A stretch of DNA of 64,000 bases from Eledone cirrhosa (GCA_964016885.1 OZ024753.1:13950001-14014000), one strand, 5' to 3'; positions 39,090-60,380 are shown, counted from the first letter of the stretch. The notes: generated from the letters alone by a model not told the origin. Made by a program: numbers and translations.

Positions 39090-41510
39090 TCAAGATTGTA
39101 AATGAGGGTTGTCATATATCTGTGACTGTTGAGATCCATAGTCGGATGAGGACGAATAACTTTCGTTTGCGTTAAGACTACCGTATTTGTGCGCACCACC
39201 CATTCGTGACATTGCTTCAATTCTTAATAGCTTGTCCCTTATGCTTTTCTCACTCTCAGACGACAGAGATTCAGTCTCAGTTTTCGTAAATCTATGAAAT
39301 AAATTTTGAAATCTATTCTTTTTTAACGATGTATTTGAAAGGACTCTATGAGATTTTCTCAAAGACCTGGTCACGTCATTTTCGGGATATGTCGTTCTCC
39401 ACACTTTCTGCTTATATTCATTTAATATCGCATCCCTTTTTTCCTGTATGTGTTTCGGCAATTCTGACATATCTGATGATAGACAATGAGATGATGGTCT
39501 GTCTAAAGCATGGTGCAGACAAAAATAATCGTCTCCTTCATTCAGCAGATCAACAACTGTACTCACGTTTTTCAAATGTATCTCCGACTTCTTTTTCCTG
39601 ATCTTATGATGTACTAAAATCCAATGAATGCCAATAAAAGGCAAATAAAAGAAGAAGAATAAATTTATAACAAACAACATCTTTCTTGACAGAGCACGAA
39701 CTCTTTCTTTAGTTTTTGGGTGTCTTGGGTAACCGTAATCGTTGTACTCTACATCTTTATTTTCAATATCTTTATCGAAATATTTTGTCTGAAAGTTGCT
39801 TTTTATGAAGACGCACAGCCCAACTTCGCCAATGTAAAGGGGGAAACAAAGGCCAAAGAACACTTTTAGCAAGTTAAGTATCATACAGAAAATCAAGAGC
39901 GCGAAAATAATAACACATGTATCGACGCTATAAAGTATCATTGGAGGATAAATCACTTTCGTTGTTTTGACTTCGCATATATATTTTGGACCACAACTAC
40001 ATTCACAACCGTCCAAGCAAACACAAATATTATTTTCTTCTAAAGTAATATACTTCGATTTCACCGTTTTCTGATCTTCGTTCCATAATTCTAATATACA
40101 TTGCATCGGTATCAGAGTTTTGTCAGAGCTTTCAACGACCATGTCATTATTTTCTCTGTCAACAATTAAATCGATGATTTGATAAAATACCACAGTTTCT
40201 GCTTCCAATGGTGCCAAAGTAGATACCTTGAACTGTTTATCAGGTTCGCAGTTCAATGATAGTTTAAAATGTCCTGTAACTAGTCCTTTATTGATTATAT
40301 TTATACCAATCTCATATTGGTTGTCTTCGTCTGAAAATGGGTGACTATACACAGTTCCAATAGCACCTTCACTTAACAATGGAACAGCGGAAGGAAGAAG
40401 TTTTTTGTTAAGATTTATGATAATATCTAGCTGTGCTTTAACAGAATGCTTCACATTTTCTGTGAATAACATTGATATATTTGGCATCCAGCCAGGAATT
40501 GATCCAATATAAGGAGGTATTGGTTTGATAAAATGCGATAGGAAATATTTTGATTTGTCAATAGTGTCAATGTTGTTAGATTTCTTGAGATGGTCGTCAA
40601 GCCAGAAACTCAGAGGCTGATTCTTGAAACATGTTTTAACAAAGGAATCTAAACAAAGGTCTTTCTTTTGCAAAATAGTTTCGGCTAATATTCCAGTTGT
40701 TCCGCACGAGATTCCATTTAAATCAAAGAACTTCTTCTTAATAAGCAAGTACTCATCAACGCCCCCCAAGGTCTGTTGTGTCTGTATACTTTTCTCTTTT
40801 ACTGATGAACTTGCAACAGGTATCAATAAATATGATACATTTGAACATATCGATCTTTGACAAGTAATATTTGGCTGCCGAATAACGCGGGCCGTGAAAT
40901 GAAGGTCATTGCTTTGTTCATCGACAGTTTTACCGTGAACAAGCAAACGACTGCTTTTCACGAAACTTTCGCTCTCTAAGTTTCCTCCATTATCTGAGTC
41001 CCTTCTAAAGACCTCTACCACAAGGTTTTGAATAATTTTAGGGATGCCGAGCGTATTAACAGAATACCATAAAGGGTCATATAAAACGCAACGAATCTGA
41101 ACATTTAACGGACAACAGTACCCTTTAATTTTGTAGGAACTGCTACCTTTACTATATTTCTGGCAGAAATTGACGAAAGGCTGCTTCTCATCACATGTTT
41201 CATTGAAAACCATTTCGTATGGTTGGTTGTTGACGAATTGCAAAAACTCGAGAGGATAACCGACTATTGCATCGGAAAAATGGAAGCGTAGTATTAATGC
41301 ATCTTTAAAATAAAAGAATTGGTTTGTCGACAAATCAATCATTGTTTCAACTTCGTAGAAACGACCGTAGTTCCAGTGATCAGAATTGCTTATCTCTGCC
41401 AGAAGTTGTAGGGTCAGAAATCGATGGCGATTTGACTTTAAACGTTCCTCGTCTGAATGATGTAGAAGGACGGTAAAAACATATGCGCTTAGCAATGTCT
41501 GTAACTTCAT
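39090..41510 (-). CDS. HAP2: HAP2/GCS1 (hapless 2)-like class II fusogen, ~806 aa, single coding exon
   Basis: Signal-peptide-like MKLQTLLSAYVFTVLL (ATG 41510); YPLEFLQFVNNQPYE; GYCC...RCVLYDPLWY; HAP2-GCS1 signature EYLLIKKKFFDLNGISCGTTG...C...TCFKNQPLSFWLDD; domain III INKGLVTGHF...C...C; CVCLDGCECSC stem; TM; animal-type YNDYGYPRHPKTKERVR..FVINLFFFFYLP; basic tail. Confidence 0.88.
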   Translation of the reverse strand: MKLQTLLSAYVFTVLLHHSDEERLKSNRHRFLTLQLLAEISNSDHWNYGRFYEVETMIDLSTNQFFYFKDALILRFHFSDAIVGYPLEFLQFVNNQPYEMVFNETCDEKQPFVNFCQKYSKGSSSYKIKGYCCPLNVQIRCVLYDPLWYSVNTLGIPKIIQNLVVEVFRRDSDNGGNLESESFVKSSRLLVHGKTVDEQSNDLHFTARVIRQPNITCQRSICSNVSYLLIPVASSSVKEKSIQTQQTLGGVDEYLLIKKKFFDLNGISCGTTGILAETILQKKDLCLDSFVKTCFKNQPLSFWLDDHLKKSNNIDTIDKSKYFLSHFIKPIPPYIGSIPGWMPNISMLFTENVKHSVKAQLDIIINLNKKLLPSAVPLLSEGAIGTVYSHPFSDEDNQYEIGINIINKGLVTGHFKLSLNCEPDKQFKVSTLAPLEAETVVFYQIIDLIVDRENNDMVVESSDKTLIPMQCILELWNEDQKTVKSKYITLEENNICVCLDGCECSCGPKYICEVKTTKVIYPPMILYSVDTCVIIFALLIFCMILNLLKVFFGLCFPLYIGEVGLCVFIKSNFQTKYFDKDIENKDVEYNDYGYPRHPKTKERVRALSRKMLFVINLFFFFYLPFIGIHWILVHHKIRKKKSEIHLKNVSTVVDLLNEGDDYFCLHHALDRPSSHCLSSDMSELPKHIQEKRDAILNEYKQKVWRTTYPENDVTRSLRKSHRVLSNTSLKKNRFQNLFHRFTKTETESLSSESEKSIRDKLLRIEAMSRMGGAHKYGSLNANESYSSSSDYGSQQSQIYDNPHLQS

Positions 41511-42718
41511 AATTCCACCATATTTAATGAAATTAAAATTATCAACAATGTTTGATTGGACAGCGAGCAAGACAGAAGAAGGAAAAGAAACAAGAACAAA
41601 TATATATATATGTGTGTATATATATCGAATTATGCAAATAAGCATACGAGAAATGAAAAGCAAAAGGCTTACTGGTTGATATACCTGCAAAAAGCTGGAT
41701 TATTGGCTATTATGTTCATATTAATATCCATCCTTCATAAAAATGTCAGTCAGTTGGAAATATTGCGTTCGTTTGGCGTCATTCTTTATTTCAAATGACT
41801 TATCTCCTCTTCTCAACGCTGCTATTTTTGAATTCGATTCTCAAGCAGTACTGTTGATAAAATAATTGGTTCTCAATAACTACACGGTATAACATTGTTG
41901 ATTTTCCCCTACTTCTCAGGGCAAGACACCGGAACGGAATAATGAGGAGCTATTTTTGATTTTACTAACGTATCTCCTACACATGGTAATTTTTATATTT
42001 ATTTGTGTTCTTATGTGTATGAAGGAGGGTGGGGGCGGGTGATATTGTCGTTTAGCCCTAGGTCAGTCCTGGTTGGGCGACCTATGATCAAAGGTTTAAC
42101 GGTAAGGATGAATCTCCACGGATATGTTTGTTTTCTTTTTTTGTCTGCTATCTTATATGAAAAACTATATAATCCACTGTCTTCATAGACATCATTTTAA
42201 AGATGGTAGCATCAGATTTAAGGATGTTATTTCTAACAGGCCATGTGACCAAATTGATGTTCCGAGCTCCGGGTTATATATCATTGTTTGTCATATTTTG
42301 TGGGAAATTGGCAAGATGGATTTTACCCGCCATGTCTAGTTTTGTCACACTTGTGTCACGCTGAATCTCCCTGAGAATTACCTTAAAGGTGCACGTGTCT
42401 GTGGAATACTCAGCCACTTGCACGTGAATTTCATGAGTAGGCTATGCCGTTGACTGAACTATTACTTCTTCGGCCGAGTTTACACTCGCAAAGATTCAGC
42501 ACGCCCTCACCAATCGTCCCGGTCGTGTATGACATTTCTCAGTTCATCGAGTGCGTGTGCGTGTCTGTGTGTGTGTGTCTCTGTGTCTGTGTGTGTGTGT
42601 GTGTGTGTGTGTACATTTCCCAAATCTATTTTAAACACATAAATACATGAATCTCTCATATTTGCAATCCAAACCTACATTTCATGTCCTAACTGTTTAG
42701 GTGGTCACTCCAAGAACA

Positions 42719-43172
42719 CAAACACACAGCTATCTTACTATCACCAACATTCTGACCACTACTACAAACACACAGCTATCTTACTATCACCAACGTACTG
42801 ACCACTACTACAAACACACAGCTATCTTACTATCACCAACGTACTGACCACTACTACAAACACACAGCTATCTTACTATCACCAACGTACTGACCACTAC
42901 TACAAACACACAGCTATCTTACTATCACCAACGTACTGACCACTACTACAAACACACAGCTATCTTACTATCACCAACATACTGACCACTACTACAAACA
43001 CACAGCTATCTTACTATCACCAAAATACTGACCACTACTACAAACACACAGCTATCTTACTATCACCAACATACTGACCACTACTACAAACACACAGCTA
43101 TCTTACTATCACCAACGTACTGACCACTACTACAAACACACAGCTATCTTAGTATCACCAGCATGTTGACCA
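42719..43172. repeat. Minisatellite, 46-bp unit, ~10 copies
   Basis: acaaacacacagctatcttactatcaccaacgtactgaccactact repeated. Confidence 0.95.
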
Positions 43173-43301
43173 CTCCTACTTTGATTCTCTTTTTCATTTC
43201 ATTTGATAAGTTTTCACAGCTTAGTCATTGATTTTTCTTTTTCTGTATACTGTGTTTTTTTCTACATTTAATTTGTCTTGTTTATACACCCCTGTATACA
43301 T

Positions 43302-52577: not shown

Positions 52578-53804
52578 TAACTTTGAATAACTTTGAAATG
52601 TTTTGGCCAGTATTGGCCCAGGCCATGTCTAACTTAATAGCACCACCTGGCGAAGTCTTTCAATTCAGGATTTGGGCACCATGGCCCATTCGAGAAGAGA
52701 ATTACTGTTTGCGGAGACATATCCGGGTGTGTGTGGTTTGTCCGGGATTACTTGGAGGAATTTGTCCAAAGACTTCTTGAATTTTGTGTGGTCAGTTTCT
52801 GTTTTGACGTGTCCTGGTGTGATGTTGAAGAGAGCAGGGCCGATTGAGGTGAAATAATTGTGCCGTATTGTTGTTATGAGTTGCGATTTAGATTTTTGAA
52901 TGGGACGGATAGCACGGGGCCCAAGCCTTGGGTGTATCTTGAAGGCGATGCCAACATCATTTGGGCAGTGATGATGGAACATTTTCCACATCATGCAGAT
53001 AATATAACGCTCACGGCGACGTTGGAGTGAGTAAAGTTTCAGGTTTTCTAGTCGACCCCAGTAGTCAAGGTCTGACATGCCATCTATCTTTTTCGTGATT
53101 GCCCTTTGAGGAGCTTCAAGTTTCATGATACTTTGTTTCGTGTGGGGAGACCACAGTGGACAACAGTATTCAAGGTGTGGTCGGGCAAAAGTAGAGAACA
53201 GAAGGATAATGGTGTGGGAATCTCTCGACTGGAAGGTTCTGAGGATCCAGGAACACATTCTGCGGGCCATGTCAACTTTGCTGCTTATATGCGTGGCCCA
53301 GCTTATGTTGCTGTCCACGGTTACTCCCAAGTCTCTGATGTTGTTAGATGCCATGAGAGTTTCCCCGGAGGGAAGGGAGTACGGGAGTTTCAGAGCATCC
53401 TCTTTTCCAAAGTGGATCAGTTCGAATTTGTCTTCGTTCAGTAACATGTTGTTCTTTTCCGCCCATTGGGTAACAGCCAGTAGGTCTGACTGAAGGCTTA
53501 TCCGGTCATCCACGCCATTGATGACCTTTTGGAGCTTGGAATCATCAGCGAAAATTTTAATGTTGCTGTGTTTGATGATGCCAGTGATGTCATTAATATA
53601 GATGATGAAGAGAAGTGGGCCCAACACAGTGCCTTGTGGGACCCCCACTACTGACTTTGGCTGGGCTGGATTTGACTCCTTCAACTACAACATGTTGGGT
53701 TCTATTTGACAGGAAGCTCTTGATCCACTGCAGCAGCTTTCCAGTGACACCAATATTGGACAGCTTTCTCAGTAGAATGTTATGATCAACCCTGTCAAAG
53801 GCCT
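52578..53804 (-). mobile_element. CR1-type LINE family B, 5'-truncated copy (in GOLIM4 intron)
   Basis: ORF 52665-53684 near-identical to the other family B copies; same tail. Confidence 0.95.
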
Positions 53805-57915: not shown

Positions 57916-60380
57916 ATCATCATCATCATCATCATTTTACGTCCGCTTTTACCTGTTTGCAAGGGTGGCACGGGTCTTATTCAGCACAGCATCTCTCCAC
58001 TTGTCACGGTCTTTCGTCATCTCCACCGTGAGCTTCAGCGATCTGAGGTCTGCTCTCACCACCTCCACCCATGTTTTTCGTGGTCTTCCTTCATCCTTCA
58101 ACTGGTATTTCCTGGCACTTCTTTACCCAACGGTCATCCTCCATGCACATCACATGTCCAAACCATCACAGTCTCCTCCCCCGCACACTACAATTATCCC
58201 TCTCAGACACAGTTTCTTTCTCAACACATCCATGCTTGGTCGTTCACGCACATTGACATTGCACATCCAACGGAGCATGCTTGCCTCATTTCTCTCCAGC
58301 TGTCGCATATTCTCTGCAGTTGCTGCCTATGTCTCACTACCATGCAACATTGCGCTCTTCACACAGGCATCATATAACTGGCCTTTCGTACGCAGGGAGA
58401 AACTCTTCTTCGTCAGCAGAGGAAGCAGCTCCCTAAACTTCTTTCAACCCGTCCTTATTCTAGATACTATGGCCTCGGATCACCCCCCTCCCATGCTAAT
58501 CTGATCACCTAGGTACCAGAAGCTATCAACCACTTCTATTGCACTCACCTTTATTTGAAAAATGTGTCTATCAATGCAACTTCTACTGTCAAATTTCCCT
58601 GTACATCTACTGCATAAGTATTTCTCTCTACCTGTTAGTTTGCCTGCTATCCCACTACATATCTTGTGTACCCAAGATGTGCATTGTGTACATTTTATAG
58701 AATGCACCAGTTCCTTTTCTGCATATTAAACATGGTCATTTCCCTGACGGAATCAGAGTTTTGTCCTCTTTTCTACTCATCAACACTTAGCTGGGTTCAC
58801 TCTCAGTCTTGCTTCCAACTGCTGTTACCATAGCCAGAATTTATTCTCTAGCTCCTTTACTGATTCTGCTATAAGAACCAGATCGTCAGCATAGAGAAGT
58901 TCCCATGGACAGCCAGTCTTAAACTCCTCTGTTATGGCTTGGAGGACTATAATGAACAAGAGCGGGTTGAGGACTGAACCCTGATGTACTCCTACTTGTA
59001 TCTGGAATTCCTCACTAAACTCCATTCCTACCCTCACTCTACTGACAGCACATCTGTACAAAGCTTGCACTGTCCTCACAAGCCATTCCTCAACTCCTAG
59101 TTTCCTTAGGGACCACCAGATGACAGATTGGGGTACCCTATCAAAGGCCTTCTCTAGGTCAATAAAAGCTAAGTATAGTGGCTTATTCTTCTCTAAGAAC
59201 CTCTCTTGTAATTGTCTCACTACGAAGAGGGCATCTGTTGTACTTTTCCCAGGCACAAAACCAAACTGCATCTCATATAGTTTGACCCTTTCTCTAATTA
59301 GTTGTGCTAACATCCTTTCTGCCACTTTCATAATCTGATCCATCAGTTTTATGGTCCTATAATTGCTCCTCTCCAGAGCATCCCCTTTACCTTTGTAGCA
59401 ATTTATGAGAATACTGCTGCACCAGTCTTTGGGTATGACATTGCTATATATAGCCTGATTGATGATGCGTGCAACCAGTTTAGTGCCTACATCCCCTGAT
59501 GCCTTCAGCATCTCAGCAACTATCCCTGACAGTCCAGCGGCCTTACCATATTTCATTTCCTTAATTGCCTCTTGGACCCTATATTCATCAATCTTAGTAG
59601 CTGGTCCCTCTGTCGGATCTACTGGGGTGTAATTTCTCTCTCTCCCATTCGTTCTCCACATTCACCAATCTCTCATAATGACATTTCCAGGCCTCCTTTT
59701 TCTGATCATTCATGCCATTAAGTACACCGGCATCATACCAGACACATTTATCTCCAACAACATCCTGATTTGCACTGACACACTGCCTTGCAATGCAGAA
59801 TACCGCATGTTTCTGATCTTCCCGTCGCAGAACATTGGCAAACCTCCTTCTCTCAGCCTCCCTGTGTGCTAAGTACACCTGACGTCTAGCTTCTCTCTTA
59901 GCGGCTGTATATCCTTCTCTACTCCCACCATTTTTCCAAGCATTACATGCTAGTCTTTTATCTCTAATGGCCTTATCTACTGTGCTGTTCCACCACCAGG
60001 TCACTCTTTGTCTGGTTGGAGCTCTGCTCCAGCCACAATTTTCTTCATTAGCCTGCAGTAAGTTGTCACGTAAGAAATTGCAGTTATCATCTATGTCATA
60101 CAACTCTAAATCATCTTCTTTTTCATCATACACATCTTGAAGGGCTTTCCTAAATTTATATTTTAGTGAAAGGTCTTTTAGCTTTCTTCGCCACACCTTC
60201 CTGTATGTCTCATTCTGTCTCTTGCTTACTGAGATATCACTAATGACTAACCTATGCTGTGGGGTACATTCTTCCCTGGGGTATGCCTTGGTATTTGACA
60301 CCATCTGTCTGTCCCGCTGCCTAACTAACAAGAAGTCAATCTGGCTTATGTGCTCGCCTGATTTGTAGGTTATTAGGTGT
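57916..60380 (-). mobile_element. 5'-truncated RTE-clade LINE (APE end, RT, PHD finger, C-terminus), degraded
   Basis: QIDF, PQHRLV, TWWWN, NYRTIKL, QFGF, FIDLEKAFDRV, GVHQGSVL, YADD, DSFWYLGD; (GAT)n tail; frameshifts and stops. Confidence 0.92.

Follow-up and report, generated by a model that had tools for sequence, protein, structure and literature searches.

A HAP2/GCS1-family protein of Eledone cirrhosa with seven residues where most relatives carry a long cd fusion loop

The fusion loop of HAP2 and its Arg have been described as invariant and essential in the HAP2 proteins studied so far (PMC6089408, PMC5332557 and PMC8777248, in excerpt). An earlier note on a 64,000-nt stretch of Eledone cirrhosa DNA (GCA_964016885.1 OZ024753.1:13950001-14014000; hereafter the window, that is, the whole stretch analysed, with positions counted from its start) had described a HAP2 gene in which this loop is essentially deleted. 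Is the loop truly missing, and what might a HAP2 protein do without it?

The gene, its support and its family

The coding sequence and its parts are as follows.

39090..41510, minus strand: HAP2/GCS1 coding sequence, the short-tailed paralogue; intronless, 806 aa from MKLQ, PF10699
41451..41510, minus strand: likely signal peptide, ~residues 1-20 (hydrophobic N-terminus aligned to that of P0003, judged by eye)
41400..41450, minus strand: shortened mature N-terminus without the domain I Cys pair (Cys count; first model strand at model residue 11)
41214..41216, minus strand: Glu of strand b (QPYE), salt-bridge partner of the missing Arg (alignment)
41163..41195, minus strand: bc connection, its Cys pair kept (alignment)
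41088..41117, minus strand: CC, 7-residue cd-loop remnant and strand-d Cys; predicted tight beta-hairpin (sequence, model)
40629..40706, minus strand: ij loop, three Cys kept; D/N, Phe and Gln replaced by Gly, Ile and Lys (alignment)
40020..40367, minus strand: Ig-like domain III (model strand pattern, residues 363-479; Foldseek matches to full HAP2 ectodomains)
39975..40025, minus strand: six-Cys membrane-proximal stem motif of animal HAP2s (sequence)
39843..39929, minus strand: transmembrane segment (Kyte-Doolittle, 19-residue windows, maximum 2.77)
39612..39683, minus strand: second hydrophobic segment, conserved among animal HAP2s (alignment, hydropathy)
39093..39611, minus strand: 173-aa short tail without the conserved C-terminal domain (a domain search matched other HAP2s, not this copy)

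The gene occupies a single stop-to-stop frame of 869 codons with the ATG at 41510 as its likely start, and its MKLQ is aligned with the Met of P0003, a homologue placed below. The ATG at 41645 was rejected as a start, the paralogue being out of frame there (4 extra bases, TA repeat). An upstream exon spliced before DEER was also rejected, because neither the loop nor the second N-terminal Cys would be regained by it and the alignment of P0003 begins at MKLQ. The sequence contains zero N in 38000-43000, and in each of three short-read runs one contig of ~2.8 kb covers 38858-41473 with 0 differing letters and 0 gaps; all three runs come from a single sample, possibly the one from which the assembly itself was made, so that an assembly slip is excluded but a second individual is not represented. 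No sequence is therefore missing from the assembly, and misassembly was rejected as the cause of the missing loop. The frame has no break where a loop exon could be spliced in. Elsewhere in the window, a 46-bp unit present in 10 tandem copies (97% matches) occupies 42718-43179, 1.2 kb upstream of the gene. Frames at 7201-10425, 15327-17006, 23809-26130, 52665-53684 and 58825-60379, which we take from their motifs to be LINE-type reverse transcriptase/endonuclease, are surrounded by very long TA microsatellites.

PF10699 (HAP2-GCS1) is the sole Pfam family in the protein, matched at E=1.4e-25 and 90.3 bits (curated cut-off 27.4) over profile positions 17-469 of 515; the Pfam scan gave no match to PF14884 (EFF-1/AFF-1). 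An N-terminal signal (inspection and alignment) and a C-terminal transmembrane anchor (hydropathy) are present. AlphaFold2, given a 72-row alignment (mean pLDDT 84.6, pTM 0.71), predicts a three-domain class II fold with a closed c-d hairpin, strands 110-114 and 119-124 being joined by a 4-residue turn with pLDDT 91-93 there; a single-sequence fold (pLDDT 29.8) was discarded. In Foldseek, PDB ranks 1-8 were all HAP2 chains (E 1e-22 to 8e-20; top 7s0k, E 1.1e-22) and Fsx1 and EFF-1 ranked below them (E 4e-13 to 8e-12, ~10% identity), in a comparison that leans toward HAP2 as the alignment behind the model consisted of HAP2s. TM-scores were <0.5 with large rmsd, as expected when domain III sits differently. 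Against PDB sequences, a single-sequence search with this copy gave 0 matches and a profile search six HAP2 sequences, and an atlas search provided leads only, namely HAP2 at 0.93 and, for P0003, mixed class II matches under 0.9.

Trees were calculated from 36 rows (FastTree) and then from 18 rows (LG+G4). In the latter, the octopus-type clade is placed with bivalve HAP2 (SH-aLRT 98) and sits on a long stem. Among named proteins, the closest is P0002, a 561-aa gene model of Octopus vulgaris without the N-terminal half, at 49.5% identity. P0003, 33% identical to the window copy, is sister of the three octopus-type sequences with 100% support in the 36-row tree, and presumably comes from another cephalopod. 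By profile, fold and descent the protein belongs to HAP2, and it lacks the three canonical-fusogen hallmarks that were tested.

The missing loop and its surroundings

On the minus strand, 41123-41064 encodes GYCC-PLNVQIR-CVLYDPLWY, in which CC occupies 41117-41112, the seven residues 41111-41091 and the strand-d Cys 41090-41088. When both genomic copies (this gene and the paralogue described below) served as HMMER queries, 126 proteins were returned, of which 50 matched a two-anchor pattern (CC, strand-d Cys) and 76 were fragments or lacked the anchors; after four false anchors (P0046, P0048, P0079, P0086) were dropped, 46 were kept. The interval between the anchors spans 25-408 residues in 40 of these, 38 of which have the motif R-[GS]-x(1-5)-C; the median of all 46 is 38. 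It measures 38 in Solemya, Pecten, Lineus, Ptychodera and the spider Uloborus, 35 in Actinia and 33 in Tubulanus; in solved chains, counted from the profile alignment, it is 44 for Chlamydomonas and 31 for 5ow4. Intervals of 12 residues or fewer occur in six of the 46, namely P0003 (7), four ticks (11) and P0123 (12). Short loops are therefore not general among animals, which the earlier note had seen as a possible objection, and its claim that the cd loop is essentially deleted holds. The deletion is also shared beyond the window copy (CC-PLNVQIR-C), for the paralogue (CC-PANAQIH-C) and P0003 (CC-PHVLEAH-C) have the same seven-residue interval.

The other losses that had been listed alongside the loop were recovered as well, with one qualification. 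The window copy, the paralogue and P0003 are all without the third (CxC) Cys, the Arg motif and the Cys belonging to it, and the N-terminal Cys pair. Ahead of the YP motif these three have no Cys (in the window copy, the first 82 residues contain none), whereas 10 of 10 named animal HAP2s have 2-4 there, and strand A0 was probably lost with the shortened N-terminus. The His of AHC is replaced by Arg, but this change is private to the window copy, the paralogue and P0003 keeping His. At the ij loop, the KIG motif has degenerated to TTG (within CGTTG). The ij-loop Gln and Phe, mapped through the profile alignment to Chlamydomonas Q379 and F376, are present in 50 and 54 of 68 other alignment rows, respectively; the four clade members, O. 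vulgaris included, have K, K, N, K for the Gln and I, I, F, V for the Phe. The strand-b Glu of QPYE (41216-41214), which the note had read as kept, occurs in 50 of the 68 other rows and in both genomic copies, P0003 having Asn at this place. In the window copy, the Glu(b)-Arg(cd) bridge and the ij cage have thus kept the Glu, lost the Arg motif, and exchanged Gln for Lys and Phe for Ile. Five Cys are left in the b-c-d region (106, 116, 132, 133, 141), two of seven being missing, and 18 remain in ectodomain and stem, an even number; the two lost tip Cys were presumably disulfide partners. An extra Cys pair in domain II (40845-40862, minus strand; residues 217-222) occurs in both paralogues and P0003 and not in Solemya, and may form a new disulfide of the clade.

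In the excerpted text of PMC6089408, loop deletions and insertions are described around an invariant Arg and seven Cys, and not the loss of these residues. In Chlamydomonas HAP2, Q379 cages the Arg, and once the Arg is stripped of its charge, fusion no longer occurs and co-flotation with liposomes is impaired (PMC5332557, in excerpt). An Arg mutant of Arabidopsis HAP2 is sterile (PMC6089408, in excerpt), and the loop helices of HAP2 are required in vitro and in vivo (PMC8777248, in excerpt). Unlike fusion in Chlamydomonas and Arabidopsis, mating in Tetrahymena does not strictly need the Arg (PMC6089408 and PMC5332557, in excerpt). Because loss of the Arg abolishes fusion in Chlamydomonas and sterilises Arabidopsis, canonical insertion appears unlikely here; judged by these analogies, direct lipid insertion has very probably been lost.

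The remaining turn might still serve as a minimal fusion loop that inserts directly, as in viral class II proteins or Fsx1. The seven-residue cd segment of the window copy has an apolar turn, the turn is uncharged in the window copy, the paralogue and P0003, and loops of 10-15 residues work in viral class II proteins (PMC5332557, in excerpt). In Fsx1, which fuses bilaterally, the cd loop has 6 residues and is still needed (PMC9259645, in excerpt). However, none of the three turns contains an aromatic residue, that of the paralogue being PANA, and the bc connection has no conserved bulky residue, so that direct insertion by so short a turn seems improbable.

Two loop-less copies under partial constraint

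A PF10699 search of the E. cirrhosa genome, with 15 of 15 candidates scored, found two HAP2 loci, both loop-less, and a search with bivalve HAP2 returned only the same two, although a many-exon copy could have escaped. A tip-only search aimed at a loop-bearing copy returned a single match (E=1.26) and recovered neither of the known loci. A search of the genome for EFF-AFF gave no match, with a control search equally silent, and word-index protein searches were blank, also for P0002 and P0003, which the searched collection contains. The second locus and the region that it shares with the window are as follows.

Contig C1061:6516-18929, minus strand: intronless HAP2 paralogue, 4138 aa, with the same loop-less tip
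41400..42021 of the window, minus strand: 5' flank and N-terminal codons near-identical to those of the paralogue (94% over ~620 bases)

The paralogue is 64% identical to the window copy over the ectodomain, and each of the three runs yielded a 2,089-nt read contig that confirms its loop-less locus. Its tail consists of ~3,370 low-complexity, repetitive residues rich in Ser, Arg, Glu and Gln, followed by a conserved C-terminal domain common to the paralogue, P0003, bivalves (Solemya, Pecten), nemerteans and a hemichordate; in its own genome this domain was found once, in the paralogue. The window copy lacks it, and its short tail resembles that of O. vulgaris P0002. Nevertheless, the paralogues are closer to each other (62% identity) than either is to P0002 (48-50%). 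Between them, dS is 0.09 in codons 1-50 and 0.51 in codons 51-370, and a shared 168-nt read contig has a depth of 12.5, about the sum of 7.67 and 5. The near-identical 5' region is likely a product of gene conversion. Their mutual closeness despite the P0002-like tail, together with the 94% identical flanks, suggests an old duplication with gene conversion. Since HAP2 genes usually carry introns between strands b, c and d (PMC6089408, in excerpt), the intronless copies might have originated by retroposition of a loop-skipped transcript.

Selection between the two paralogues was estimated by the Nei-Gojobori method with bootstrap. Over codons 51-650, dN/dS is 0.55 (0.43-0.70). In domains I and II it is 0.45 (95% bootstrap 0.32-0.63) with both frames open, and in domain III and stem it is 0.96 (0.61-1.53), near neutral. 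Domains I and II are under selective constraint. These values bear on whether the two genes are remnants of a retroposed HAP2 that are in decay and have little function, as their intronless structure, the loss of hallmark residues, an only moderately low dN/dS that approaches 1 in domain III, and the partial O. vulgaris model (561 aa) might suggest. On the other hand, frames of 806 and 4138 aa have stayed open at a dS of ~0.4-0.5 and dN/dS is below 1 in domains I and II. The seven-residue spacing survives in P0003 at 33% identity, and the C-terminal domain of the paralogue is still in frame 3,400 residues downstream. Decay is hence regarded as highly unlikely.

The earlier note had also offered that the protein modulates a canonical paralogue, and here its interpretation divides: the structural part stood, whereas the modulator found no support, both HAP2 loci found in the genome being without the loop. 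A dominant-negative or chaperone-like action on a loop-bearing HAP2 elsewhere in the genome would agree with the existence of two paralogues, and a third copy with many introns could go unnoticed in a search made one exon at a time. Yet the PF10699 and bivalve HAP2 searches gave only two loop-less loci and the conserved C-terminal domain was found once, in the paralogue, which leaves such a modulator hardly any credence.

Parallel tip losses, a candidate mechanism and known systems

Two other groups resemble the octopus-type clade. Tick HAP2-like proteins (Ornithodoros, Ixodes, Dermacentor, Rhipicephalus; P0076, P0094, P0107, P0023) have an 11-residue polar cd segment and two Cys. Like the octopus-type proteins, they show a degenerate tip, have lost the Arg motif and the ij-loop consensus, and sit on a long stem branch. 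A grouping of octopus-type and tick sequences was rejected (p-AU 0.0006, 18 rows), and their short loops therefore arose separately. In lepidopteran HAP2-like proteins (Manduca, Maniola, Pectinophora; P0049, P0059, P0065), the Cys-knotted tip of domain II is replaced by long hydrophilic sequence, and the tip and ij Cys are all lost in the three named and six similar proteins, which are gene models only. They keep domain I, domain III, stem and transmembrane segment and nest in insects on both trees. HAP2 can therefore persist without any insertion tip. Ticks and Lepidoptera keep the N-terminal Cys pair, unlike the octopus-type proteins (one species of each), and stem branches are ~1.0-1.15 in all three tip-degenerate clades. 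The loss being common to the paralogue and P0003, with tip loss also in ticks and Lepidoptera, the state is not unique among animals. In the beetle Henosepilachna (P0124), a gene model only, the tip is likewise replaced by long hydrophilic sequence. P0123 and P0132, divergent HAP2-like proteins of 608 aa with a 12-residue Cys-free cd segment, lie on a long branch outside bilaterians and are possibly another independent loop loss.

What the octopus-type protein may do can be approached through EFF-1, whose acidic cd loop is unlikely to insert and which needs both membranes (PMC8784728, in excerpt). By analogy, we tentatively propose, at somewhat less than an even chance, that this HAP2-family protein, lacking the lipid-inserting module, is a partner-anchored, EFF-1-like fusogen on the gamete surface. 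It would hold on to the facing membrane by way of a protein partner in trans and, after partner binding, would refold as EFF-1 does, instead of inserting a loop into lipid. Partner-anchored fusion is favoured by the retention of the refolding parts (domain III, stem and transmembrane segment) and by the fact that no canonical copy was found. The loop and its organising elements were lost together while domains I and II are constrained, which also speaks for it. The near-identical 5' flanks suggest that both loop-less copies may be co-regulated, which would argue against one sperm copy and one egg copy. Against partner-anchored fusion, domain III and stem are near neutral between the paralogues, which fits recognition or a relaxed fold-back better than a conserved fusion hairpin. 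Moreover, a fusion-loop mutant of Chlamydomonas HAP2 trimerises without fusing (PMC13601591, in excerpt), and strand A0, whose region is apparently lost here, stabilises the post-fusion trimer in Chlamydomonas HAP2 (PMC5332557, in excerpt).

Fusion may instead have been lost altogether, the protein being kept for gamete docking, recognition or membrane organising while an unrelated fusogen merges the membranes. The relaxed or fast domain III and the lost region of the N-terminal Cys pair would fit such a role, as would the persistence of lepidopteran HAP2s whose Cys-knotted tip and ij loop have given way to hydrophilic sequence, and the long stem branches of all three tip-degenerate clades. 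The three domains, the stem, the transmembrane segment and the remaining tip Cys are all kept, however, and EFF-1 fuses with a non-inserting tip. To our knowledge, no class II fold protein is known as a pure adhesin, which was also counted against docking. We regard docking as possible and on the whole unlikely. It nevertheless stays close behind partner-anchored fusion, given a domain III that is near neutral, the loss of the N-terminal region, a tip that is apolar, and the trimers of the Chlamydomonas loop mutant, which are uncoupled from fusion.

Extended to the whole group, partner-anchored fusion would mean that the HAP2 by which cephalopods fertilise has exchanged virus-like lipid insertion for protein-anchored fusion in trans, carried by a co-regulated loop-less pair, one short-tailed and one with a 3,400-residue tail, with a similar independent switch in ticks and Lepidoptera. 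This extension is doubtful. If true, nature would have passed more than once from HAP2-type to EFF-1-type fusion, which would provide a model for the shedding of the ancestral gamete fusogen by animal lineages. With a constrained loop-less HAP2 as the sole HAP2 type recovered from an animal genome, natural deletion mutants are available for the question of unilateral versus bilateral fusion, and three independent tip losses make the fusion question comparative. The loop-less state is relevant, too, to the ways in which HAP2 was lost or replaced among animals. Subscription papers and the supplements of structure papers aside, no published report on the HAP2 loops of cephalopods, ticks or Lepidoptera was found; a gonad study of O. 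sinensis contains no HAP2 term in its text or single supplement (PMC11202624), and PMC7688107 (in excerpt) and PMC2766252 (by term search) added nothing on cephalopod HAP2.

Among known systems, the nearest named relatives outside cephalopods are the HAP2s of bivalves and nemerteans (Solemya velum KAL5009314.1, Pecten maximus XP_033735139.1, Mytilus coruscus CAC5374079.1, Lineus, Tubulanus), which share the stem Cys motif and the juxtamembrane block with the window copy at only ~23% identity; they keep loops of 33-38 residues with CxC, R[GS]GQxC and [AT]HC, the Mytilus loop being read by eye. The best Foldseek and profile matches are the solved HAP2/GCS1 structures of Cyanidioschyzon (7s0k), Arabidopsis (5ow3), Chlamydomonas (5mf1, 6dbs, 6e18) and T. 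cruzi (5ow4). Like these fusogens, the window copy has a signal, domains I, II and III, stem, transmembrane segment and strand-b Glu, as well as the bc, CC, strand-d and ij cysteines. Unlike them, it is intronless and lacks the Arg, the CxC Cys with its presumed partner, and the N-terminal Cys pair. The class II fusexin fold is shared by C. elegans EFF-1/AFF-1 (PF14884) and archaeal Fsx1 (PDB 7p4l), which provide a functional analogy only; the tip of EFF-1 is acidic, whereas those of the window copy, the paralogue and P0003 are apolar (PLNV, PANA and PHVL).
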